Assembly: GCA_012813795.1 (NCBI GenBank)
Contig: GCA_012813795.1_4087.1
Origin: a phage
Direction: 5' to 3' (one strand)
DNA: 64,000 bases
Within the stretch, counting starts at the first letter, position 1. The number at the start of each line of letters is the position of its first letter. The position numbers were made by a program, and so were the translations under genes. Shown piece by piece: positions 2,135 to 59,382 of the stretch. Under the pieces are notes generated by a model. That model made no database searches and was not told the DNA's origin. It saw nothing but the letters and a program-made list of their open reading frames with translations.

Positions 2135-2442
2135 TAACGAACCTCCACTTCTTGAGAAAGAGCATGAGTCAGTGCATTTGAATTCGAACCATTCATTTCA
2201 CGCTGACATACAAACATAATGGCATCTTGTACTGAACCTGCGATTTCATACTCACGACCTTCTGGATCAGTTACCAGATGTTCAACGATACAACCACCAC
2301 GCAGTACAGAAGCACCAGTACTTACACTAATCCTGTAACCTAAAAAATCAAACTGCATACATGCGTCAGTAGGTTTCATCCAATAACCGCTGTTTTGATT
2401 CAAATCGATGATTACAAAACCTTGAGTGTTAGTTTGAAACAT
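2134..2442 (-). CDS. hypothetical protein (102 aa)
   Basis: ORF track; first gene after promoter 2536..2564. Confidence 0.5.
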   Translation of the reverse strand: MFQTNTQGFVIIDLNQNSGYWMKPTDACMQFDFLGYRISVSTGASVLRGGCIVEHLVTDPEGREYEIAGSVQDAIMFVCQREMNGSNSNALTHALSQEVEVR

Positions 2443-2535
2443 AGTTAATTCCTCATTTAATTTAAAAGGGTGGAAACGCAGTGACGAGTACGATTATGCT
2501 GTCTTTCCTTTCACTGCATTCCCTTTGATATAAAC

Positions 2536-2564
2536 ATTATACTGCTATTATTCAGTACTGTCAA
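2536..2564 (-). promoter_or_regulatory. sigma-70-type early promoter
   Basis: Minus strand reads TTGACA-N17-TATAAT followed by GTTTAT; spacer starts GTACTG. Confidence 0.7.
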
Positions 2565-2839
2565 TCGATATAAGTACCTTTTTTAACATCACAGACTTCT
2601 TCCATCCAATGTGGATTTTCGTTTTTATCAGTGAAGATTTGTTCTGCTTCTTCTTTTGTTTCAGCTAGGACGATACGGTCCCCATCATCCAAAACACGGA
2701 TACGATAAACTTTCAGTTCTTGTTTCTGCTCAAGGATATTACACAGTTCACGTGCTTTTTCTTCATCGCACTCCCCTTCATTAGCATAAAACCAGATTGC
2801 TTTTTTAATAAGGTCACGTTCTTCTTTGGTAAAAGACAT
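2561..2839 (-). CDS. hypothetical acidic protein (92 aa)
   Basis: ORF track; downstream of promoter 2885..2912. Confidence 0.55.
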   Translation of the reverse strand: MSFTKEERDLIKKAIWFYANEGECDEEKARELCNILEQKQELKVYRIRVLDDGDRIVLAETKEEAEQIFTDKNENPHWMEEVCDVKKGTYID

Positions 2840-2884
2840 AATATTTCCTATTATTTGTTAAAGTGGGTGTCGTTTGATATAAAC

Positions 2885-2912
2885 ATTATACAGTACTGAT
2901 ATCTTCTGTCAA
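2885..2912 (-). promoter_or_regulatory. sigma-70-type early promoter
   Basis: TTGACA-N16-TATAAT-GTTTAT; CAGTACTG abuts the -10. Confidence 0.65.
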
Positions 2913-3010
2913 GTATTAATCACCAAAAATCATCATATACCCAAACCAACAAACACAGATGACTAAAACTAACAATACCAACGATAATCTCTAAAGTCAC
3001 GTTTGCATCC

Positions 3011-3211
3011 TTAATCAATGATTTTATATTCACGATGACCATAGAAGCCAGCCTCAAGGATGTGATTACCATCAGCATCTTCCAAGTCCCAGCCACGGGA
3101 TGTTTCGGCAATAATAGTCATGATGTGACCTTTAGTGAAGGTTCCACTCATAGTAGATACGTCTTCAAGTAATTGAACCTGCTTACCAACATTTGTATTC
3201 GATTGAAACAT
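3011..3211 (-). CDS. hypothetical protein (66 aa)
   Basis: ORF track; preferred over overlapping frame 2920..3111. Confidence 0.45.
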   Translation of the reverse strand: MFQSNTNVGKQVQLLEDVSTMSGTFTKGHIMTIIAETSRGWDLEDADGNHILEAGFYGHREYKIID

Positions 3212-3222
3212 TTATTTTTCCT

Positions 3223-3303
3223 TTAAGGTTGGATATATGCCAGTGCACCAATACCGATAACAACTACAGTGAATACAACCAGAAATATATTAAGTTTCAT
3301 CAT
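3223..3303 (-). CDS. possible 26-aa single-TM peptide
   Basis: My translation gives MMKLNIFLVVFTVVVIGIGALAYIQP; ATGATGA overlap with upstream ORF; below track size cutoff. Confidence 0.3.
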   Translation of the reverse strand: MMKLNIFLVVFTVVVIGIGALAYIQP

Positions 3304-3467
3304 TGTTTAATCACCTCGATTACTTTATCGATCTTAGTTCCAATACTTTCAGTACTTTCAGTTTTAGATGTACAGTAATCTGGACGGGTGTCAGGAAACT
3401 TCTCAGTTACCCATGAATGTCCATAGATGCCTAAACCGATACCAACGATTAAGATAATGATTTGCAT
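3300..3467 (-). CDS. possible 55-aa N-terminal-TM protein
   Basis: My translation gives MQIIILIVGIGLGIYGHSW...; below track cutoff. Confidence 0.35.
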   Translation of the reverse strand: MQIIILIVGIGLGIYGHSWVTEKFPDTRPDYCTSKTESTESIGTKIDKVIEVIKQ

Positions 3468-3481
3468 GATAGTTCCTCTAA

Positions 3482-4276
3482 TTAAATTACATAGGGTTTA
3501 TAGTAATGAATCTCATTTGCTATTGCAGTGAAAACTTTCTTATTAAATCTTTCACCATAATCACGAAGTGATTCACCTTCTACGCTTTCAATAAAGTAAT
3601 TATATACTGGTAGTCGTGCACTGTCAATACCTATAAACGATTTCATGTAAATTTGTACTAAACGATTCATACCTGAATTTAAACATTCAACATCAAAGTG
3701 CTTGATACCTTTGTCTAAGTGCTTGAATGCATTGATGATACCACGCTTGAAATCACGCTCCATAGTACTGAATAGATTCTCAGGAAACACTGTAATCGGA
3801 GACATGGATTTAAGAATGTATGTATCTTTTGCATTCTTGATGTACTCAATGAAGCAGTAGTTTACATTAGGCTCAATTGAACGGTCTGCATTATGATACC
3901 AGTACTTAAACTCGCTGTACTCTGCGAACTTATGCTGGCGTAAGGCATTACAATCCTCACACAGTGCAGTCATGTTCTCTTTATCATTACCACCCTGAAG
4001 ACAGTCAAGTACATTATGGTCTAACGTCATGCGTACAAGGCGTTTCCCTTTAAGTACATAAGGTCTGAATTTATAACGGTCTTTAGTACTGTGCTTATGT
4101 AAAGTGAATACTACATTGGATTCACCACAACAATCACATTTAAAGCCGTCACGAGACATTACATGAATGAGTTTGCGAGTATTAGGTCCAAACTCAGATT
4201 TAGTAATATTATCCACAATTTCTGATGGTTGGTAATATTTTGAATTCAGTCGAATCAATTCATCGATAGTACTCAT
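3482..4276 (-). CDS. HNH-motif nuclease domain protein
   Basis: CDCCG...LDHNVLDCLQGGNDKENMTALCEDCNALR (Cys pairs flanking H-N-N); start moved to MSTIDE with GAGGA SD just after upstream stop. Confidence 0.65.
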   Translation of the reverse strand: MSTIDELIRLNSKYYQPSEIVDNITKSEFGPNTRKLIHVMSRDGFKCDCCGESNVVFTLHKHSTKDRYKFRPYVLKGKRLVRMTLDHNVLDCLQGGNDKENMTALCEDCNALRQHKFAEYSEFKYWYHNADRSIEPNVNYCFIEYIKNAKDTYILKSMSPITVFPENLFSTMERDFKRGIINAFKHLDKGIKHFDVECLNSGMNRLVQIYMKSFIGIDSARLPVYNYFIESVEGESLRDYGERFNKKVFTAIANEIHYYKPYVI

Positions 4277-4277
4277 T

Positions 4278-4502
4278 TTAGATTTCCTCTTCACTGCATT
4301 CGGTGATTACTTTTTTAACCTCTATAACTCTTACTAAATGATACCCGCACCTATGGTTGAAATTAAACATGTTTACTAATGCATCAGCTTCTGTTTTTGC
4401 CCTAAATTGGAGATTATATATGTGCATAGTTTCATCGAGTGAGGCTTCACCTTTGCTATTGAAAACAATTTTACAAACTTCAAACCTTACTCGATAAATC
4501 AT
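4278..4502 (-). CDS. hypothetical protein (74 aa)
   Basis: ORF track; 4-nt overlap upstream. Confidence 0.45.
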   Translation of the reverse strand: MIYRVRFEVCKIVFNSKGEASLDETMHIYNLQFRAKTEADALVNMFNFNHRCGYHLVRVIEVKKVITECSEEEI

Positions 4503-4708
4503 TGAGTTTGTCCTACAATAAATTTCGCTTTAATATCACTTTTGTAACACCACATTTGTTCTTCACTAACTGTCATCCAAGAATTTTTGTTTACTTGTTC
4601 GTATGTACTATCACGTACAGAAAAACATTGGTTTAATGAATTCATAGGGGTAATTTGTACACCGGATTGCATTGAAAGAGCAACAATTAAAAAGATTGTA
4701 GTATTCAT
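4499..4708 (-). CDS. small secreted/membrane protein (69 aa)
   Basis: N-terminal hydrophobic signal-like segment; first gene after promoter 4773..4801. Confidence 0.45.
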   Translation of the reverse strand: MNTTIFLIVALSMQSGVQITPMNSLNQCFSVRDSTYEQVNKNSWMTVSEEQMWCYKSDIKAKFIVGQTQ

Positions 4709-4772
4709 TGAATGTTCCTTAATAGTTAGTCATCCATCTCTTCGAGATGTCTGTTCGCTTCTAATACTACGT

Positions 4773-4801
4773 ATTCTACGCGAATGATTAATAACTGTCA
4801 A
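4773..4801 (-). promoter_or_regulatory. sigma-70-type promoter
   Basis: TTGACA-N17-TAGAAT on minus strand. Confidence 0.6.
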
Positions 4802-4804
4802 GGA

Positions 4805-5324
4805 CTTTTAATATTGACGGGATTTGAGGAAGGGATTTTTCTTCCCCCCGCTGGGAGGGGAATTTGACGCTGATGGTATCAGAGCTATTGCATTGAAGAT
4901 TACTCTTAATGAGTACGAAAGCGGGTCATCCTGTTTCTCTCTACTTCAGTTTCATATGACGGTCTACACTTTTAAACATAGTGTATCTTCATTAAGTATC
5001 TATGCAATCAAATACTTAATGTGAGTACTCAAATTTTGGACGCAACTTTCCTGTACAAAATTTGATAACTCTCCCTTAGATAATTCGTAAGGTGTTATCC
5101 TTATATGTCTATCTAGGAACCACCAGCCATCCTAACGTGGTTCTTTATAGTGCCGCATTGCCGTGAGGGGTTCATAATATGCCCACATCTGACGGGTTTC
5201 TTCTGCACTTCGCACTGCTGGACTGCTCAACTGCCCTCTACATTTTCGAGTGGATCAGGTTCATGTCATCCATGCCAACAGAATTGTACAATATCATTGT
5301 ATCATGAACATCCATTTTGTCCCA
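4805..5324. ncRNA. ORF-free, hairpin-rich island; candidate large structured RNA (strand unresolved)
   Basis: No ORF longer than 66 codons and none with an SD; several 5-9-bp nested stems; locally GC-richer; only one AGTACT. Confidence 0.3.
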
Positions 5325-5358
5325 TAAAAAAAGGGCTGACCTAAGTCAACCCTTTTTC
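5325..5358. terminator. bidirectional rho-independent terminator
   Basis: A7-AGGGCTGAC-CTAA-GTCAACCCT-T5 directly after the sigma gene stop. Confidence 0.75.
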
Positions 5359-5359
5359 T

Positions 5360-6322
5360 TTAGAAATCTTCGTATTCGTACCCTTTTTCAAGTACTATTT
5401 TTTTAAGCTTTTGAATAGCTTCACTATATTTTCGGTGCACAGATGAACGGGACTTAACAATGTTTCCTTTATCATCAACATATCCATTATCAGAAATTTC
5501 ACGAAGGGTTTCTGCTTTGTAATCCCCAAGACCATGAACACGCATGATAATTTCTCGTTCTTTAGTACTCAATTCGTCAATGATTTCTGTGATTGCATAA
5601 CGTAATGGATTACAAATGCTATCAACATTAAGGTTATAATCACGAGCAGATGAACTCAGAATATCCCCAAGGGTTCCGTCTGAATCTGAACCCAGTTGTG
5701 CATCAAGAGTCGTATATGCATTCTGGTATAACAAACAGTTCTTAACGTGCTGAAGCTCGATACCAGTACTCTCAGAGATTAATTCTGGTGTTGGTCGCTT
5801 ACCGTGTTCACGTTGATATGATTCATTAAATCGACGTACTTGGATGTTATGAACGCTCATATAACGTGGTAAGTACACCATGTAATTTGCATCTGAACTT
5901 TCATTATACATAGTCATATAAACGGACGTTGTTGCATATGTAATGAATTTGACATTCTTACTAAGATCAAAGGTTTTAAGTGCTCGCATAAAACCTTCTA
6001 CGCCATATGCAATTTTATCTTCAAACGGAATATAACATGTACACTTTGAAGCAACGTCAACAATCATACCATAGTTGTAACGAAGTAATAGGTCAGTATT
6101 CTTTTTTACATTAATCCCAGCACGAATCTCTTCTATGATAGATTCATTAGTTACACCTGCTGGACGTTTAATACTGATATTACTTTTACTACGAACTTTA
6201 TGTGGAATATCATCTTCAATAACTTCTGATGGTTCAATTGCTTCCAATGGATTGACTTCTTCATTCGCAAAACATTCATCCAGTACTTCTTCGGAAATTG
6301 CGTTTAAGTCTAGTTTCTTCAC
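5360..6322 (-). CDS. sigma-70 family RNA polymerase sigma factor (320 aa)
   Basis: Collinear with sigma-70 regions 2-4: FITYATTSVYM..., GKRPTPELISESTGIE, LGSDSDGTLGDIL, STKEREIIMRVHGL, C-terminal HTH. Confidence 0.85.
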   Translation of the reverse strand: MKKLDLNAISEEVLDECFANEEVNPLEAIEPSEVIEDDIPHKVRSKSNISIKRPAGVTNESIIEEIRAGINVKKNTDLLLRYNYGMIVDVASKCTCYIPFEDKIAYGVEGFMRALKTFDLSKNVKFITYATTSVYMTMYNESSDANYMVYLPRYMSVHNIQVRRFNESYQREHGKRPTPELISESTGIELQHVKNCLLYQNAYTTLDAQLGSDSDGTLGDILSSSARDYNLNVDSICNPLRYAITEIIDELSTKEREIIMRVHGLGDYKAETLREISDNGYVDDKGNIVKSRSSVHRKYSEAIQKLKKIVLEKGYEYEDF

Positions 6323-18696: not shown

Positions 18697-19465
<769 letters not shown>

Positions 19466-19468
19466 ACA

Positions 19469-19601
<133 letters not shown>

Positions 19602-19602
19602 A

Positions 19603-19702
<100 letters not shown>

Positions 19703-19746
19703 ATAGGCACATACGGGTCTGCTTTTAAGCTACTGATTCGGGAATC

Positions 19747-19792
<46 letters not shown>

Positions 19793-19799
19793 CGTTCTT

Positions 19800-20018
<219 letters not shown>

Positions 20019-20027
20019 TAATACCCT

Positions 20028-20429
20028 TTAGTAGTTTAAGTCAGCGGCGTTGAACACACCGAGTGAAGTCTTACCACGTAGTTTAGGGGAAATGACATAT
20101 TTTGTCAATGTCTTTTTACCGTACCAGTACTCGAAATCTTTTTCTTCTACATACGGATTAGGGAAATCCCATTTGCGTTCTTTATGAATTTGCTTGGCCT
20201 GGACTTGAAGCTTTTCAACTTCATCTGGTGGTACAGTATCTACATTATTAAACTGCATGTACATACCTTTTAACCCATCAAGAATTAATTTTTCAGTTTC
20301 TTTAACTAATGTAATCTTTTCGATTCCAGTACTGATATTCATGTAGTCATCTACATAACCATTCCAGATAACAATCTCTGGATTACCTTCGATTCCCTGA
20401 AGCATCTTGATCAAGTCATTCTTTTTCAT
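20028..20429 (-). CDS. hypothetical protein (133 aa)
   Basis: ORF track; shared N-terminal motif with 19800..20015. Confidence 0.55.
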   Translation of the reverse strand: MKKNDLIKMLQGIEGNPEIVIWNGYVDDYMNISTGIEKITLVKETEKLILDGLKGMYMQFNNVDTVPPDEVEKLQVQAKQIHKERKWDFPNPYVEEKDFEYWYGKKTLTKYVISPKLRGKTSLGVFNAADLNY

Positions 20430-20437
20430 TTGAATTC

Positions 20438-22078
<1,641 letters not shown>

Positions 22079-22094
22079 ATCACCAACTTTAATT

Positions 22095-22240
22095 AAAAAA
22101 ATGGATGGTGACGCTTTTAAACGCCGCTGTTAATTCAGCTTTATAACCACCCGTTTTAACTTGCCTTTCGGCTACCTTGACGTGGGGCGTACAGGCTACT
22201 AAAAGCAACTTCTGTAAACATATTTCCACGCCTTACCATT
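22095..22240 (-). ncRNA. structured RNA 2, related to 20811..20885
   Basis: Extended -10 promoter (CTGATATAAT at 22244..22252), no ORF, GCC-GAAA-GGC hairpin, GCTG-AATTAA-CAGC hairpin, closing stem followed by T7. Confidence 0.4.
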
Positions 22241-22263
22241 TTCATTATATCAGTACTTTTATC

Positions 22264-22503
22264 TTATACTTTAGTTAGTACTAAGTTGTTGATGTTGTTT
22301 ACATCTGGACAGACGTCGGTGCGATGCATCAATTCAATATCAAGAATGTATTGTTTGATTTTTGAAATGTCAATGTCTTTTTCTTGCATTACGATGATAC
22401 ATGACTCATTTAAAGTATATGTATCATAAGACCATCCCATTCCATCACCACGTGGAACTTTTTGTGATACATTATAACTATAACTCACAAAATACTTACC
22501 CAT
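22264..22503 (-). CDS. hypothetical protein (79 aa)
   Basis: Start moved to MGKYFVS, downstream of the promoter 22536..22563 start site. Confidence 0.5.
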   Translation of the reverse strand: MGKYFVSYSYNVSQKVPRGDGMGWSYDTYTLNESCIIVMQEKDIDISKIKQYILDIELMHRTDVCPDVNNINNLVLTKV

Positions 22504-22531
22504 TTCAATATACCTTCTGTTGTTAAGATAC

Positions 22532-23385
<854 letters not shown>

Positions 23386-32272: not shown

Positions 32273-34171
32273 TTAAAAGAATATATCACGTAGTAAATGT
32301 TCTATAACAGGTGCTGTCCAGCCATTACCAAGCATTTTGTACGCTTGTGTTGAACTACTAACTTTGAAGTAGTTTACATCAATTCCTTGCAACATGCAAC
32401 ACTCTTGTACTGTTAAATGACGATAGTCCACATTTCGTTTACCCTTCTCAATCAGGAAGTTCCTGTTGATATCAGGGTCTTTGAAAACGATTTGTCTTCT
32501 TGACTTATTGAAGTACTGATTCGGATCTCCACCCTTGAAGTAGTTTGCGTCAATGCAATATGATTTATCACGATCAGTATACCAATTACCAGTTAGTATA
32601 TCTTGTAATTTTGGTGCTAAAATAAGAGGTTTTGGAATAAACAACTTATCCGAGCTATACCAGTAGTAACGTTGGCGATAATGTGCTGTATAATTTTGTG
32701 AATTTATCAAAATTGGTGTCATTTCCAACACGCCATTGATATAATCCTTGAAATCTTCCTTCATCTTAACATTCTCAAAAAGAACTTTCAAGTTAGGATT
32801 GAGACTTTTTATGTGCTGGTAAATATCAACCATTGTATGGAATAACATACCACGAGGATCATTCACACCGCCTTGTTTCCCAGCAACTGACCACGCTTGG
32901 CAGTTATGAACTACAATATTGTTCGCCGTATATGTGTTATCTACTGCAACTTCAATATTGTAAACGGTTTTCCATTCTCCGGTTGTGGTGTTCGATTTAA
33001 CACCTTTTACCCATGAATATGACCCATCATCATAGAATGCTTCATCTTTTCGGTGCTTTTCTTTTTTGTATGTTAATACGTAATACGGCTTCTGATTAAC
33101 AACACGTTCTTCTATAACTTTTGTTTCAGACGGTTTAAAGTATGTTATGTTAGAATGACGACCATACACATTCATAATTAGTTGTTGTATACCAAGAATA
33201 ACATTCTTTGATGTTGATGTAAATTTTAAACAATCATCTTTCTTGTCATGGTGACCATCTGCGTCAAAATAACCATCAATGAATGCTTTCTGATTAGCGA
33301 TACTTTCAGTGAAAAGTGTGGGGTGTACTTGTTTATTTGAAGCACCCTTACCCATTTGTTCACAAAATTCAACTAGTTCTTTTGAACAAATATAGAATTT
33401 ATAAGATGTTCTTTCTTTAACAAAATTATATTTCATATTCATACCATCAAAACATGAAACCAATTCATCAAATTCATCATGAGCACAGCAAATAAAAACA
33501 CGATATTGATAACTATTTTTTCTATTTTGTCGTTTTACTTTGTAAGTCCATCCATCACCCATAAATCTACCCATGAAATACCAAAAGCTTTCACTCTTGT
33601 TATGTTGAAAATTCACATTACAACGAACATTACATATAGCATGTTCTTCTGTGAGTTCATGTGCATCGATCCATGTAGGTTCTGTATATTCACGAACATA
33701 TTGTCGTTTTTCATTATCCCACTTCTTGCTCATTTTTCTCGCATAAAATGGATGATTATCAGTGCATTCAATTGGTATATGTCCCTGACCTGTGATGATT
33801 CTTGTTGGTGCAATCTTGCTACCAATACTCAATACTTTTTGGTATTGTCCAGTGTGTGTAAGAACCATATCACCAATTTTTATATCTTTTATATCTTTAT
33901 GACCTTCATTTGTCATGATCATGGTTCCTGCTGGGAAGCAAGGAAAACCACCCATCAGAAGATCTATCTTGTCCCATTCGATATCCCATTCTTTCCATCT
34001 AGTTACATCACCCAATTGGATGATATCAGGAAAGTTAGCCTGGGATTCAGCTATAGCAAATTTATCAATTTCAGATGAGTAGTACTTTTCAACTGGTATT
34101 CCTGCACTTTGCAAGGCCATATACCCAACACTCATCCCATTGAATAGTGATAGTACACGTATCGGTTCCAT
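32273..34171 (-). CDS. C5-cytosine DNA methyltransferase precursor carrying an intein
   Basis: Motif I LSLFNGMSVG; motif IV split as GGFP|C...HN|CQAWSVAGKQ; ENV motif FENVKM; C-terminal QECCMLQG...GNGW. Confidence 0.85.
   Translation of the reverse strand: MEPIRVLSLFNGMSVGYMALQSAGIPVEKYYSSEIDKFAIAESQANFPDIIQLGDVTRWKEWDIEWDKIDLLMGGFPCFPAGTMIMTNEGHKDIKDIKIGDMVLTHTGQYQKVLSIGSKIAPTRIITGQGHIPIECTDNHPFYARKMSKKWDNEKRQYVREYTEPTWIDAHELTEEHAICNVRCNVNFQHNKSESFWYFMGRFMGDGWTYKVKRQNRKNSYQYRVFICCAHDEFDELVSCFDGMNMKYNFVKERTSYKFYICSKELVEFCEQMGKGASNKQVHPTLFTESIANQKAFIDGYFDADGHHDKKDDCLKFTSTSKNVILGIQQLIMNVYGRHSNITYFKPSETKVIEERVVNQKPYYVLTYKKEKHRKDEAFYDDGSYSWVKGVKSNTTTGEWKTVYNIEVAVDNTYTANNIVVHNCQAWSVAGKQGGVNDPRGMLFHTMVDIYQHIKSLNPNLKVLFENVKMKEDFKDYINGVLEMTPILINSQNYTAHYRQRYYWYSSDKLFIPKPLILAPKLQDILTGNWYTDRDKSYCIDANYFKGGDPNQYFNKSRRQIVFKDPDINRNFLIEKGKRNVDYRHLTVQECCMLQGIDVNYFKVSSSTQAYKMLGNGWTAPVIEHLLRDIFF
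32903..33940 (-). mobile_element. 346-aa intein with LAGLIDADG homing-endonuclease domain, inserted at the catalytic Cys of motif IV
   Basis: N-terminal block CFPAGTMIMT, block B CTDNHPF, LAGLIDADG motifs FMGRFMGDGW and FIDGYFDADGHH, C-terminal VVHN followed by Cys+1; no AGTACT in 1038 bp. Confidence 0.8.
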
Positions 34172-34370
34172 CTATAATCCTTTATAAAATAAAATACTGG
34201 ACGAATATTCGCCCAGTATTGTCCTTTTTAATACTATTTAAAACTTATGTGGATTTCTCTTTTTAAGACCATCCAGTACATCAGTAGGTAGAATTTCACG
34301 GAATGACCCCACTGGGATAAGGATCATTACATATTTCAATTGGAGTTTCCTCGTTGTATAAGATTGATTA

Positions 34371-34399
34371 ATTGTATAATATTATTGCTCCATTGTCAA
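34371..34399 (-). promoter_or_regulatory. sigma-70-type promoter
   Basis: TTGACA-N17-TACAAT. Confidence 0.6.
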
Positions 34400-34442
34400 G
34401 CAAAATATAATTCCTTATACATTCTTTCTCTCTGATACAAAC

Positions 34443-45439: not shown

Positions 45440-46567
45440 TTACTTGTTAGCTTTGTCAGCAATTTCGCGAAGAGTTTCTTCAAGTTCGTAGGACAACTGT
45501 GCAATTTCATGTTTAGCACGTTCACGTTCTTCCTTACCTTTCTTCTCTTCAATCAGTACTGCTTCGATGCTATCAATCATTGTTTTGTGTACGTTACGCA
45601 ATGTTTTAATATCCACAATACCACGGTTATTAGCTTTAGCAGCATCTAACATATTAGTTGCTACCATTTTGGAGTTCACTTCAAGTAAACGGTTAGTTTC
45701 ATTATCAATCAAATTACCCAACTCGTTATCTTTGCGTTGGCGTTCAGAAATCAATTGTTCTGCTAGTTGTGATTTCCATGCAGGGATGACAACAGATTTC
45801 AGATCTTCAAATTTAGATACAGTGTTTAGATTCACTTTCTTCATACTCATCAGACGAGGGCCACTAAGCTCACACATCATGATAAGACGGCGAATCTTAT
45901 CTTCCTGTTTAGACAATGCTTCACAAATCATCTTCTGCTCTTGGATTGCGAAAGAATCCACATCAGGGTTCGCTTGCATTTCTTCCAGTTTAGCATCTTG
46001 AGTTTTTGTGACTTGTTCCAATTCAACCAGCGTATCGCGTAATTCAAATAGATAGGCTTTATTCTCATTGTAAGCAGTATCCAACCACTCACATTCACTA
46101 TGTTGGCGATTGATACCAACCTGGAGTGTGTTCATGATTTCATCAATCTGCTCTTTACTATTCTTGTACTGATCACCAACTTTCTGTTTTGCATTGACAA
46201 AGAGTTTTTTGACCCAACCTACAATTGATTTATCATCTTGTAGACTGTCAATATCAACAGCACGGGTTAGGGATAAAATTGTGGTAATTGATTTACCAAA
46301 TTCAGTATTGTCATCAGTGACGTTCACTTTTGACATGATTTCATCAGCCAAACGTCCTACACCTGCACCAGCAGTTGTTCCAATGGTGTTAATGTTCTGA
46401 ACAGTTAAAGACATAGTGTTACCTTTTGTATCTTTCAGTACAGGTAACGTTTTAGCCTGTTGGTCGAAAATATCACTCGCATCAAAAGTATTACCTTTGG
46501 TTTTGGTTGTAGTACGCTTAGTAGTTTTGGTAGTTGCTTTTTTTGGGTTGATTTCTTTCTCGGACAT
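45440..46567 (-). CDS. telA: TelA (toxic anion resistance) family protein (375 aa)
   Basis: VIPAWKSQL and NRGIVDIKTLRNVHKTMIDSI match TelA signatures (IPLWKNQ, RGIVDIETLK) as recalled; long helical protein. Confidence 0.65.
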   Translation of the reverse strand: MSEKEINPKKATTKTTKRTTTKTKGNTFDASDIFDQQAKTLPVLKDTKGNTMSLTVQNINTIGTTAGAGVGRLADEIMSKVNVTDDNTEFGKSITTILSLTRAVDIDSLQDDKSIVGWVKKLFVNAKQKVGDQYKNSKEQIDEIMNTLQVGINRQHSECEWLDTAYNENKAYLFELRDTLVELEQVTKTQDAKLEEMQANPDVDSFAIQEQKMICEALSKQEDKIRRLIMMCELSGPRLMSMKKVNLNTVSKFEDLKSVVIPAWKSQLAEQLISERQRKDNELGNLIDNETNRLLEVNSKMVATNMLDAAKANNRGIVDIKTLRNVHKTMIDSIEAVLIEEKKGKEERERAKHEIAQLSYELEETLREIADKANK

Positions 46568-55956: not shown

Positions 55957-57369
55957 TTAATCTTCAGACTTAGGTGTAAAGTCCATTTTTAGTAATTCTT
56001 GTAGTTCTTCTTTATAGATATTCCAGATTTTATCTTGGTTATTAAGTAAATCATTATAACTATCCATTAGATCTAGATTATCTTGAATGTCTTTCAGTAC
56101 TACATCGTAATTATCTTTCGTCCAGCGATAAGATGGGAAGTTTACAATACTCTGGATATTCTCAGATGTAGCTTCGATTTCAGTATTAAGCGAAGTTACA
56201 AATTCAACCATTTCAGCACGGTTTGCAAAGCCTTTTACTTTACCAATCATGTCATTATCAAAACACTCTTTGATGAGAATCTTATAACGAACTTCGGCTG
56301 CACAGTCTTCCAGTTTCTTCTCATATCGCTTCACATAGTATTTGAAACGGAAATTTACGAAATCTTTAATCAGGTCAAGTGTACTGTCATATACACGAAC
56401 TTTACCATTTTCACCAAGAACAGTTAACAATTGAGTCATTTTCTTATTCAATCCAAAATACTCAATTACATCAGCTTCGGTCCATTTTTGAGAAATTCCG
56501 CGTGGTAGTTTGATCGTGATATCAATAACATCAGTACTATCATTATCGTAATCACGAATATCACCATCATCACTCATCTTGATTAGTTTTTCGATAAACT
56601 TTTCAATACTATAATTGGGTGGAAGACCTGTCACTTTAACAGTACTTGCGTCAATTACCTGTGCTTTACCATAAAATTCATATTTGTTTTCGTCTAGTTT
56701 AGTTACTATATCACTAGCACCAACCGATGCATAATATGGTGTCATTTCTTTAAGGGGTTTCCCTTCAATTGCACGAATACAGTTCTTTATTACATCCTCA
56801 ATCTTATGTGGAAGAATTGTACTCTTATACCCTACTGACATACTATCATTACCAAACAATGCTAATGGGATGATAGGTAGGAAGTGTACTGGTTCCATTG
56901 TAGTACCATCATAGTTCTCTTTCATTGGAATTATATCCATATCACGTAGAACTAATGCTTCAGTCGTTTTTGTCTTTTTGACGTAGGTATAACGAGCAGA
57001 TGCCGGAGTACTGTTAACTTGTGTCCCGAAACCACCACGCTTACCAATCAGTGGGTAGTTGTTAGCAACTGGACTAGCTAGGTTTTGTAATGTTCCTGAT
57101 GCAGATGTGTCACCATGAACGTAAATCCCATCACTGATCATACGACCTGCACATGAAACAGTTTTAATCTCCCCACTGATTTTGGATAATGTGAAGATTG
57201 CTTTACGTTGAGAACTCTTGAGTCCGTCAATCCCTGGGATAGCACGGTCAAGTGTGTACATTGAGTATTCTAATGATGTAGTATTGACATAATCTGAACT
57301 TTTATAATCAAGTAAAGTTAGAGTTAATTCATCAACATTTGTATTAGTGTTTTTCTTACTTTTAGCCAT
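55957..57369 (-). CDS. type II DNA topoisomerase, DNA-cleavage subunit (GyrA/ParC N-terminal-like; T4 gp52-type), 470 aa
   Basis: LDRAIPGIDGLKSSQRKAIFT; active-site Tyr context PASARYTYVK. Confidence 0.85.
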   Translation of the reverse strand: MAKSKKNTNTNVDELTLTLLDYKSSDYVNTTSLEYSMYTLDRAIPGIDGLKSSQRKAIFTLSKISGEIKTVSCAGRMISDGIYVHGDTSASGTLQNLASPVANNYPLIGKRGGFGTQVNSTPASARYTYVKKTKTTEALVLRDMDIIPMKENYDGTTMEPVHFLPIIPLALFGNDSMSVGYKSTILPHKIEDVIKNCIRAIEGKPLKEMTPYYASVGASDIVTKLDENKYEFYGKAQVIDASTVKVTGLPPNYSIEKFIEKLIKMSDDGDIRDYDNDSTDVIDITIKLPRGISQKWTEADVIEYFGLNKKMTQLLTVLGENGKVRVYDSTLDLIKDFVNFRFKYYVKRYEKKLEDCAAEVRYKILIKECFDNDMIGKVKGFANRAEMVEFVTSLNTEIEATSENIQSIVNFPSYRWTKDNYDVVLKDIQDNLDLMDSYNDLLNNQDKIWNIYKEELQELLKMDFTPKSED

Positions 57370-57417: not shown

Positions 57418-59382
57418 TTATTCCATCCAGTTTTTACGATCATCAGCACGTTTCTTGTTGAAAATCAAATCTAATGTTTCACCAAGACGACCGTCATCAG
57501 TAATTGCTACTGCAACACTATTCGTAAATGCATCGCGGAAGTTACTTTTTTCGAGTGTTCCTAAACCTTTCGCACGAGTTGCTTTCCACCCTTTCCAATC
57601 TTCAGGAATATATTCATGGACGTTATGACCATAAAAATACTTAGATTCCTTACCTTTCTCCAAGATAATAAATGGAGTTTTGAATACGTATACAAACGGA
57701 TTATCAGGATCTTGGAATAATTCGGGCCAGAATTTGTACAAGAAGTTACAAACTAGTGCACCAATGTTCTTACCATCCTCATCTTCGTCCGCACAGATAT
57801 ATAGCTTACCGTAATTCAAATCAGCACGGTCAGCTTTAACTCCAGGGACCAAGTTGATGCTTGCCATTATATCATGCAATGCCATAGAATCCATTAATTC
57901 TTTGGTTTTCTCATTCCCACTAACGTTCATAATCTTACCACGCAATGGGAGGATACCATGAATACTAGGAATACGAGCACTTGCCATGTTGGAAATAGCA
58001 GAGTCACCTTCCGCAACCAATAGAATACATTGTGAACGGTCAGTTCCAGTACTATCAAGTAGTTTTGCAACTTTACCTTTCAAAAGTTTCTTGGCAAGGC
58101 GACGGTCTTCTTCTGCGTCTTTCTTATTAGTACGGGCAGCACAACGTTCAAAAATCTCATCAACCCATTCTTTATTTTTCTTGACCAATTCATCAAACCA
58201 GTCAGTACTCATAGCTTGCTGAATAGGACGAATTACATTTTCATTAGTCAACTTAGATTTAATCTGTGAGTTGAATGATGGTGCTTTCATTGTAGTTACA
58301 TTGTAAATCAACAAACCTTCTTCAATATCAGAACGGTTTGGTTTCATCTTACGCTTCTTCGCTTCTTTCTCTAATGCAGTTCCTACCCCTAAAGAGAAGA
58401 ATTTCTTGAAGGTATCTAGATGTGTACCACCATCAAATGCTGGAGCATTATTCACAAGACCATGCATATGGAAGTTTGTGTTCATACCAGATACAGCATT
58501 AGGTACAATATAAAACGTACTATTGAAATTGAATGATTCATCTTTAACATTCAATGACATTAGTTTTGAAGCATTAAAGAGTGCCTTTTCTGTGCTTCCT
58601 TTAATTGCAATACGTTTACCATTCAAGAAGATTTTGTATGTTGGGTTCGCTGCTGCCATTTCTTTTAGAATACTATAAAGTAATTCAGTTGGTAGCTTGC
58701 GATTAGGAAATACTTCTTTACTTAGGGTAAAGCGAATAGTTGTACCAGTTTTATCGGATTGTACTTTTCGAATAGTTGGTTCATGTACATGAAGTTCAGG
58801 GAACATAATTGTACCTTCTTCAAACTTCTGTGTATATTTGTACATACCATCATAACCGTCATTACTGGATTGCGTTTTATATGGACGTCCGGTTCGGTGA
58901 ATTTCAAGTTCTGCTTTAGAGCTAACAATCATAGCCACAGAACCACCTAGACCGTTTTGACCGATTGTTTCATCACGCTTAGAATCATCAAAGTTACGAC
59001 CAGTTTTAGTTTCAGTCATTACCATCGTACAGAGGTTTTTCTCATACTCTGGGACATAATCAATCGGAATACCACGACCATTATCACTGATTTCGAAGGA
59101 AAGGTCTTCTTCATTGAAATCAACTTTCAGTACTGGTTCTTTCGTACCAGCTTTTTTGAATTCATCAAGACTGTTATCAATAATTTCACGAGTTGCAGTA
59201 AGAATTGCAGGAACCCATTCCATATTTTTTACAGCATAATCATTTTCACCAAAAATCAGTACTTGACTTTCGTGAATAGAACGAGAACCAAGATACATCT
59301 CAGTACGTAGACGAGCATGTTGATAATCGTTTAGACGTTGAACGTCATGTTCTTGTAGAACAGCACTTTCTTTCTTAGCCAT
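57418..59382 (-). CDS. type II DNA topoisomerase, ATPase/Toprim subunit (GyrB-like; T4 gp39+60-type), 654 aa
   Basis: REIIDNSLDE, SDNGRGIP, QNGLGGS, Toprim LLVAEGDSA and ICADEDEDGKNI. Confidence 0.9.
   Translation of the reverse strand: MAKKESAVLQEHDVQRLNDYQHARLRTEMYLGSRSIHESQVLIFGENDYAVKNMEWVPAILTATREIIDNSLDEFKKAGTKEPVLKVDFNEEDLSFEISDNGRGIPIDYVPEYEKNLCTMVMTETKTGRNFDDSKRDETIGQNGLGGSVAMIVSSKAELEIHRTGRPYKTQSSNDGYDGMYKYTQKFEEGTIMFPELHVHEPTIRKVQSDKTGTTIRFTLSKEVFPNRKLPTELLYSILKEMAAANPTYKIFLNGKRIAIKGSTEKALFNASKLMSLNVKDESFNFNSTFYIVPNAVSGMNTNFHMHGLVNNAPAFDGGTHLDTFKKFFSLGVGTALEKEAKKRKMKPNRSDIEEGLLIYNVTTMKAPSFNSQIKSKLTNENVIRPIQQAMSTDWFDELVKKNKEWVDEIFERCAARTNKKDAEEDRRLAKKLLKGKVAKLLDSTGTDRSQCILLVAEGDSAISNMASARIPSIHGILPLRGKIMNVSGNEKTKELMDSMALHDIMASINLVPGVKADRADLNYGKLYICADEDEDGKNIGALVCNFLYKFWPELFQDPDNPFVYVFKTPFIILEKGKESKYFYGHNVHEYIPEDWKGWKATRAKGLGTLEKSNFRDAFTNSVAVAITDDGRLGETLDLIFNKKRADDRKNWME

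Follow-up and report, generated by a model that had tools for sequence, protein, structure and literature searches.

The 64,000-nucleotide (nt) stretch of phage DNA analysed here (contig GCA_012813795.1_4087.1 of GenBank assembly GCA_012813795.1; hereafter the window) carries a gene for a C5-cytosine DNA methyltransferase that is interrupted in frame by a long insert. We think it highly likely that this insert is a genuine class 1 intein with a LAGLIDADG homing endonuclease, that is, a selfish mobile element lodged in the most conserved stretch of a phage C5-methyltransferase gene. This region of the window is 100% identical to A4_120 of Escherichia phage A4 (ON286972.1), a jumbo phage of 355 kb in the genus Asteriusvirus, where the deposited label of the gene is only 'DNA-cytosine-methyltransferase'. 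A reading made from the letters of the DNA alone (the sequence-only reading) had placed a LAGLIDADG intein of 346 amino acids (aa) at 32903-33940, where it splits motif IV (P-C-Q) of such an enzyme directly ahead of the catalytic Cys, with the N-side junction LLMGGFP↓CFPAGTMIMT and the C-side junction NNIVVHN↓CQAWSVAGKQGG (arrows mark splice points), canonical splicing blocks (Cys1, CTDNHPF and a terminal HN) and two LAGLIDADG motifs. The placement is exact to the base, both junctions were quoted correctly, and every one of the blocks and motifs was found.

The boundaries of the insert are fixed by comparison with homologues that lack it. Removal of the intein from A4_120 in silico gives DLLMGGFPCQAWSVAGKQGG, and the intein-less alleles of phages 121Q, Hallingskeid and GAP32 carry DLLMGGFPCQAWSVAGKQGG, letter for letter as predicted for the spliced A4 protein. 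More than 30 intein-less records, comprising Asteriusvirus (including 121Q and PBECO4) and related jumbo phages of Erwinia, Cronobacter, Pectobacterium and Xanthomonas, encode a protein of 286 aa that is collinear with the ligated exteins, aligning with them as one ungapped piece at 72-81% identity, and that has exactly DLLMGGFPCQAWSVAGKQGG, reading GGFPCQAWSVAGKQGG at the junction site with zero indels; the clean excision boundaries expected of an intein are thus seen in the alignment. In 121Q and PBECO4 the motif IV region is ATGGGTGGTTTCCCA↓TGCCAAGCCTGGTCAGTTGC. The homologue of Klebsiella phage RaK2, a protein of 297 aa, is likewise uninterrupted and carries GGSPCTDVSFAGKQ without an insert, and the N-extein of A4 can be aligned with the intein-less proteins of 121Q, RaK2, Hallingskeid and GAP32. 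A shift of the boundary was suggested by a pairwise MAFFT alignment in which the catalytic Cys of RaK2 fell opposite Cys1 of the intein; we rejected it as an alignment ambiguity that the alleles of 121Q, Hallingskeid and GAP32 settle.

Profile searches agree with these boundaries. In Pfam, the DNA_methylase family PF00145 matches the precursor with an E-value of 4.9e-29, in a match that is split into three stretches. After splicing in silico, PF00145 scores 124 bits instead of 102 (E-value 1.6e-35) and its match runs unbroken over the junction, while the score of TIGR00675 rises from 96.4 to 116.1 bits, with a cutoff of 100.65. Given this gain on removal, and given that the insert is 1038 nt long, in frame and free of stop codons in a genome of 34.5% GC, its presence is not a matter of chance.

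The spliced protein aligns over its full length with the catalytic domains of DNMT3B and DNMT3A (E-value about 2e-22) and also with M.HhaI and M.HaeIII; in a sequence search among solved structures, DNMT3B and DNMT3A rank ahead of these two bacterial enzymes. The alignment with DNMT3B spans aa 2-282 and pairs GGFPC with GGSPC, FENV with FENV and LGNGWTAPVI with LGRSWSVPVI. Motifs I, IV, VI, VIII and X of the PF00145 C5-methyltransferases were all found on the spliced sequence, those of the C-extein being ENV (motif VI), QRYYW (motif VIII) and GNGWT (motif X). In C5-methyltransferases, cytosine is attacked at C6 by the Cys of motif IV. Intein-less alleles have GGFPCQAWS at this motif. Since the intein lies between its Pro and its Cys, the residue that serves as +1 nucleophile in splicing is the homologous counterpart of the catalytic Cys in DNMT3B, M.HhaI and M.HaeIII, and the earlier claim that the +1 extein residue is the catalytic Cys of the enzyme can, on grounds of homology, be regarded as secure. 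The enzyme had also been described as 'Dcm-type'. The assignment to the C5-methyltransferases holds, but not that to Dcm proper: the matches among solved structures are to DNMT3B and DNMT3A, and NF007772 (PRK10458), which would indicate orthology with E. coli Dcm, scores 25.9 bits against a cutoff of 710. The C-extein of A4 is unusually divergent near gene nt 1494-1620, with 55-60% nt identity to other Asteriusvirus alleles, and this stretch may be the target-recognition region.

The insert itself is intact. All of the essential residues are present, namely Cys1, T60, H63, D129, D228, H345-N346 and the +1 Cys. In an alignment of 31 family sequences, conservation reaches at least 90% for Cys1, T60, H63 and the +1 Cys, as it does for D129/G130 and D228/G229, and N346 is invariant; the penultimate His (H345) is replaced by Phe or Tyr in many relatives. 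The key residues of the C-terminal splicing subdomain are 100% identical across all five Asteriusvirus inteins. In Pfam, the precursor matches Hint_2 at 36.7 bits (cutoff 28.4) and LAGLIDADG_3 at 33.8 bits (cutoff 22.5), and matches Intein_splicing and Hom_end_hint below their cutoffs. An AlphaFold2 model of the intein built on the family alignment has a mean predicted local distance difference test (pLDDT) score of 93.1 and a predicted template-modelling (pTM) score of 0.90, and consists of a beta-rich Hint domain (aa 1-105 and 306-346) split by two alpha-beta-beta-alpha-beta-beta-alpha repeats. The best PDB matches of the model in Foldseek are TliVMA (7qsu, E-value 6.6e-19), PI-SceI (3.7e-17) and PI-PfuI (7.5e-14), with PI-PkoII also among them, and I-DmoI matches the endonuclease core; I-DmoI and PI-PkoII were found by sequence as well, and at the sequence level the N-terminal Hint region is similar to the gp41-1 mini-intein (6qaz). 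Judged by its Hint fold, its nucleophiles, the TxxH motif, the HN↓C junction and the collinear in-frame insertion, the insert is a class 1 intein, and motifs, profile and fold all mark its central domain as a predicted two-motif monomeric LAGLIDADG endonuclease. A group I or II intron or a free-standing homing endonuclease gene was ruled out by the in-frame, stop-free insert with Hint blocks at both ends and HN↓C, and a class 3 intein or a bacterial intein-like (BIL) domain by Cys1, the +1 Cys and flanks that derive from one host protein.

The distribution of the intein among related phages is patchy. It is present in 5 of about 40 records of the Asteriusvirus clade (A4, UE-S1, ph0011, TH47 and JNE01), and more than 30 relatives are intein-less. 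Moreover, inteins and exteins differ in their relationships. Between TH47 and JNE01, the inteins are 94% identical at the nt level (synonymous divergence, dS, 0.25) and the exteins 83% (dS 1.10), indicating an intein younger than its exteins. The extein of A4 is nearest to that of UE-S1 (89.5% aa identity) and its intein nearest to those of TH47 and JNE01 (77% vs 55%), while the extein of TH47 is nearest to that of the intein-less phage 121Q (93% aa identity). Along the gene, identity between TH47 and 121Q is 94% over nt 1-171 of the N-extein and at least 93% from nt 181 of the C-extein onward, but only 77-82% in the 60 nt that precede the insertion site and the 180 nt that follow it; in this flank of low identity the intein-bearing alleles share a sequence of their own (INDPRGMLFHTMVDIY.. 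vs LNDIRGQLFLVMVEIF..). When the junction tracts were compared by blastn, stretches of about 95% identity between A4 and UE-S1 were found to cross both junctions, at gene nt 94-346 and 1187-1425, whereas the background identity of the region is 70-85%. The endonuclease cores of these two phages share only 20-50% protein identity, and that of A4 is 96-100% identical to that of TH47 over part of its length. Patchiness, discordance between intein and extein trees, co-conversion tracts and the decay of the endonuclease in relatives (described below) together point to a selfish homing element. Three variants of the intein occur in Asteriusvirus, in which the splice-junction blocks are near identical and the core of the UE-S1/ph0011 type is 20-50% identical to that of the A4/TH47 type, suggesting that these inteins have exchanged their endonuclease domains while keeping a conserved Hint scaffold.

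Inteins at this insertion site also occur far beyond Asteriusvirus. A search of metagenomic proteins with the intein alone as the query gave 41 protein clusters at 23-54% identity, nearly all of them with PF00145, and in about 35 of these the intein lies at the same place, in the pattern ..(S/F/T)P↓CF.AGT....[HFY]N↓C(Q/T)x(F/W)S.AG. This same-site family spans full-length inteins of 330-370 aa, partly decayed forms and mini-inteins. In cluster P0003, whose extein lineage is the nearest to A4, the intein is 264 aa long, the first LAGLIDADG half has been lost and the second motif has degenerated to FLCGLFSSK; the inteins of P0038 and P0013 are partly decayed, and P0039 and P0040 are mini-inteins of 153 and 149 aa, respectively. 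Other proteins with an intein at this P↓C site are those of Lactobacillus phage Nyseid and Mannheimia phage 587AP2, the Dmt protein of P1-type phages and PACILC2_22540 of Paenibacillus cisolokensis. Of 5,426 complete E. coli genomes, 152 contain DNA of the intein of the P1-like phage RCS47, in most cases on P1-like plasmids, and the genes there bear the label 'Dam family methyltransferase' or 'LAGLIDADG family homing endonuclease'. Since the site is filled in about 35 clusters, in isolated phages and in the Dmt of P1, the A4 intein is no isolated case but belongs to a widespread insertion-site family. The rarity that the sequence-only reading had implied is therefore contradicted by dozens of metagenomic C5-methyltransferases, several isolated phages and the 152 E. 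coli genomes. By insertion point and sequence, we regard the A4 intein and the same-site inteins as one insertion-site ('allelic') family.

Some of these loci deserve a brief description. In P1-like phages (RCS47, a P1 variant, and Ro157c2YLVW), Dmt carries a LAGLIDADG intein of about 341 aa at the motif IV P↓C of its C5 domain; the junctions in RCS47 dmt (locus positions 2270-5557) are VLVGGTP↓CFTAGH...VVHN↓CQAFSIAG. In Mannheimia phage vB_MhS_587AP2 (locus positions 964-2800), the intein-bearing C5-methyltransferase has a frameshift just past the C-terminal splice junction and is annotated as two coding sequences, 'hypothetical protein' and 'cytosine-specific DNA methyltransferase', with an HNH endonuclease gene directly downstream of the split gene; this methyltransferase is either a pseudogene or the product of a sequencing error. 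More distant relatives, at 26-29% identity, lie in other phage genes: the anaerobic ribonucleotide reductase (RNR) of Lactococcus 949-group phages, the thymidylate synthase of Aeromonas phages PS1 and PS2, and helicase/methylase genes of mycobacteriophages. The annotation of the mycobacteriophage locus is inconsistent, as the same locus is called a helicase, a methylase or an anaerobic RNR depending on the record.

The decay seen in the family raises the possibility that the A4 element is itself dead or dying, having lost splicing or homing, with A4_120 being a methyltransferase pseudogene or a frozen insertion. The endonuclease has been lost in P0003, P0038, P0039 and P0040, the C-extein of Mannheimia phage 587AP2 is frameshifted, and the A4 intein has two residues that are not those of the textbook, Pro at -1 and Asn in block F. 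In addition, the methyltransferase of several intein-less relatives (CMSTMSU, SD-6_S16 and SD-1_S14) is frameshifted, matching in two to three pieces, and the gene may therefore be dispensable. However, all 632 codons of A4_120 are intact, every essential splicing residue and both catalytic Asp residues are present and conserved, and the structure model is confident and canonical. Purifying selection is also strong: the ratio of nonsynonymous to synonymous divergence (dN/dS) is 0.06-0.12 for the exteins and about 0.08 for both the splicing and the endonuclease parts (0.076 for the endonuclease between TH47 and JNE01), an estimate that rests mainly on the TH47-JNE01 pair since dS is saturated or undefined for pairs that include A4. 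For these reasons, we consider a dead or dying intein to be very unlikely.

That limit on the selection estimate is one of several points that weigh against an active, selfish homing intein. Pro at -1 has been reported to hinder N-terminal cleavage in inteins in common use, such as Sce VMA and Mxe GyrA, and in block F of A4 (VYN-IEV) an Asn takes the place of the Asp found in many class 1 inteins. Asn at this position is typical of the family and Pro at -1 is almost universal in it, with an exception in P0010 (SPD↓C), which argues for adaptation to Pro at -1; as both features are typical of the whole family, we take them to be lineage traits and not lesions. The mosaic patterns could have arisen by general recombination between co-infecting phages, without any drive from an endonuclease, and the persistence of a full-length intein may be compatible with some benefit to the host phage.

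A benefit of this kind is at the heart of a second alternative, in which the intein is a conditional switch that holds back splicing, and with it methylation of phage DNA, until a cue from redox state, temperature, metal or stage of infection is received, for example through a reversible disulfide between Cys1 and the +1 Cys. The intein would then have been retained because of the timing of methylation. Both junction nucleophiles are Cys and that at +1 is catalytic, so that activity strictly requires splicing, and with the two Cys nucleophiles side by side a redox trap is conceivable in chemical terms. The mini-inteins of P0039 and P0040, which lack an endonuclease, would fit with an intein being kept for some purpose besides homing. 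Splicing that depends on conditions is documented in other inteins, such as that of Pyrococcus horikoshii RadA (PMC4513877). Against this, only 5 of the roughly 40 close phage records have the intein and the others use an uninterrupted enzyme at the same locus; the intein is therefore not a conserved regulatory feature. Furthermore, tree discordance, co-conversion tracts and purifying selection on the endonuclease are what a mobile parasite predicts. An extra sensor domain or a conserved additional Cys pair was not seen, Cys59 beside block B is not conserved in the family, and the cytoplasm of E. coli is reducing. We therefore hold a switch to be highly improbable, and find it still harder to credit that the precursor is a thiol- or redox-sensitive (or metal- or temperature-sensitive) pro-enzyme through which C5-methylation by the phage is delayed or tuned as infection proceeds. 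If that were true, a DNA methyltransferase would be under natural control in the manner of a zymogen, and this arrangement would recur in many phages, P1 among them. The sequence-only reading had proposed that methylation is post-translationally gated and sensitive to redox state or temperature; patchiness, tree discordance, co-conversion and decay of the endonuclease in relatives favour a selfish element instead, and leave that proposal unsupported.

Based on these observations, we propose the following course for a selfish homing intein. The 632-aa precursor would be translated whole and would then follow the standard class 1 pathway of four steps. Splicing would begin at the bond between Pro77 and Cys78, with an N-S acyl shift made by Cys1. 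The resulting thioester would be attacked by the +1 Cys, which is to become the catalytic residue of motif IV, and Asn346 would cyclise with the aid of His345. A final S-N shift would yield the 286-aa methyltransferase (...GGFPCQAWS...), presumably a normal enzyme, together with the free 346-aa intein. In a mixed infection, the endonuclease of the released intein would cut intein-less alleles at the motif IV sequence, and repair on an intein-bearing genome would copy the intein along with short flanking tracts of extein. The precursor is very probably inactive before splicing, since a domain of 346 aa breaks the catalytic loop right before the nucleophile and splicing uses the catalytic thiol. 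Inteins are known to occupy the most conserved and least mutable motifs of DNA-metabolism enzymes. Motif IV would suit such an element because the site cannot mutate away and because it supplies the Cys that the intein needs; conservation of the target is thus the best explanation for the choice of site, without any need for regulation. The positions of the gene and its parts are given in Table 1.

Table 1. Positions in the window of the A4_120 precursor gene, its exteins and the parts of the intein.
Feature	Position	Strand	Remarks
Precursor gene A4_120, C5-cytosine DNA methyltransferase with in-frame intein	32273..34171	minus	Single open reading frame, 632 codons and stop
N-extein, aa 1-77	33941..34171	minus	Motif I (LFNGMSVG); ends in motif IV ...GGFP, with Pro at -1
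Class 1 intein, 346 aa (Cys1-Asn346), precursor aa 78-423	32903..33940	minus	Between Pro77 and the motif IV catalytic Cys
N-terminal splicing (Hint) subdomain, intein aa 1-105	33626..33940	minus	Hint_2 match at aa 1-56
Intein block A (Cys1)	33902-33940	minus	
Intein block B (T60..H63, CTDNHPF)	33743-33778	minus	
LAGLIDADG homing-endonuclease domain (predicted), intein aa ~106-305	33026..33625	minus	LAGLIDADG_3; PI-PkoII and I-DmoI matches
LAGLIDADG motif 1, FMGRFMGDG (D129)	33548-33586	minus	
LAGLIDADG motif 2, FIDGYFDADG (D228)	33251-33292	minus	
C-terminal splicing subdomain, intein aa 306-346	32903..33025	minus	
Intein block F (VYNIEV..DNTYTA)	32924-32971	minus	
Intein block G (NNIVVHN)	32903-32923	minus	
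+1 Cys codon TGC	32900..32902	minus	Splice-junction nucleophile and motif IV (P-C-Q) catalytic nucleophile
C-extein, 209 aa and stop	32273..32902	minus	CQAWSVAGKQ (rest of motif IV)

Upstream of the methyltransferase start, on the same strand, lies a segment of about 260 nt (34187-34442) that is specific to A4, a counterpart being absent from the four phages compared (121Q, UE-S1, TH47 and JNE01). The segment and its upstream edge contain two sigma-70-like promoters with 11 of 12 matches each (34471-34443 and 34399-34371), a short open reading frame of about 29 codons, as counted by eye, and a terminator-like hairpin (34220-34193) that ends 22 nt ahead of the methyltransferase ATG. Elsewhere, the window encodes five tRNA genes (Thr, Asn, Met and two Ser) and a TelA-family protein (within 19131-23260; 45440-46567), as well as the subunits of a type II topoisomerase, one GyrB-like (57418-59382) and the other GyrA/ParC-like (55957-57369).

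The A4 intein is real and merits annotation. Recognising it corrects the size of the mature protein from 632 to 286 aa and explains a length polymorphism among near-identical phages; the relatives of A4_120 in UE-S1, ph0011, TH47 and JNE01 have been deposited as plain 'methyltransferase' or 'hypothetical protein'. In the searchable full-text literature, which leaves most subscription journals and InBase outside its scope, we found no described intein in a C5-methyltransferase or in P1 Dmt, and none of the same-site inteins (those of P1 Dmt, Nyseid, 587AP2 and the metagenomic clusters) is described there as an intein; the hits dealt with purification tags, inteins of N6_N4 methylases or unrelated subjects, and the paper on the A4 genome makes no mention of the A4 intein. 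Within that scope, the literature agrees with the sense of the sequence-only reading that the site had not been described. The motif IV inteins of C5-methyltransferases thus seem to form a common insertion-site family that has escaped description. Its members cover every stage of the homing cycle and show mosaicism at the level of domains, with conserved splice junctions and swapped endonuclease cores, which makes the family a good natural system for the study of intein turnover in phages. Pro at -1 makes a junction that most engineered inteins handle poorly, and the family is a potential source of mesophilic, E. coli-compatible Cys/Cys inteins with what appears to be a natural tolerance of it. 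Furthermore, the predicted target of the LAGLIDADG enzyme is a sequence conserved in many methyltransferase genes. The general understanding of inteins is unchanged, as insertion into the active sites of DNA-metabolism enzymes is already the known rule, and the A4 intein is unsurprising to the specialist: it looks like an ordinary selfish element and not a regulatory switch.

In its architecture, the A4 intein resembles PI-SceI (Sce VMA1), TliVMA, PI-PfuI and PI-PkoII. As in these inteins, a Hint domain is split by a two-motif LAGLIDADG endonuclease, the chemistry is that of Cys1, TxxH and HN followed by Cys at +1, and the insertion is into a highly conserved active site. However, sequence identity with this group is only 10-18%, and the host is a C5-cytosine DNA methyltransferase, whereas theirs are vacuolar-type ATPase (V-ATPase), RNR or polymerase. 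The A4 intein is also compact, at 346 aa against 430-540, lacks the extra DNA-recognition region of PI-SceI, and differs in its Pro at -1 and in the Asn at a block F position that is often Asp. The same-site inteins of other C5-methyltransferases are closer, with an identical insertion point, the same two-domain architecture and 27-54% identity to the A4 intein. They differ in residing in other extein subfamilies and hosts (methyltransferases of the Firmicutes type with a Zn-ribbon insert, and P1 Dmt, which is fused to a Dam domain), in having Phe or Tyr for the penultimate His in many cases and, in some, in lacking an endonuclease.

Inteins have been reported in other phage methylases. Those of mycobacteriophages lie in N-4/N-6 amino-methyltransferases of the PF01555 type (Kelley et al., 2016, PMC5050341), and an intein is known in an actinophage methylase family (Gosselin et al., 2023, PMC9957025). 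Like that of A4, these inteins are carried by phages in DNA-modification genes, encode a homing endonuclease, and have a patchy distribution with horizontal transfer among divergent methylase alleles. In contrast to the N-4/N-6 hosts of Kelley et al., 2016, A4 has a C5-methyltransferase (PF00145) with insertion at the catalytic Cys, and by tblastn the mycobacteriophage and actinophage methylase inteins are only about 26% identical to that of A4. A different kind of comparison is offered by the RadA intein of Pyrococcus horikoshii, which, like the A4 intein, interrupts a catalytic motif so that the activity of the host protein depends on splicing. The conditionality of RadA splicing was demonstrated experimentally (PMC4513877), whereas for A4 there is no sign of it and the pattern in the phage population favours a purely selfish element.

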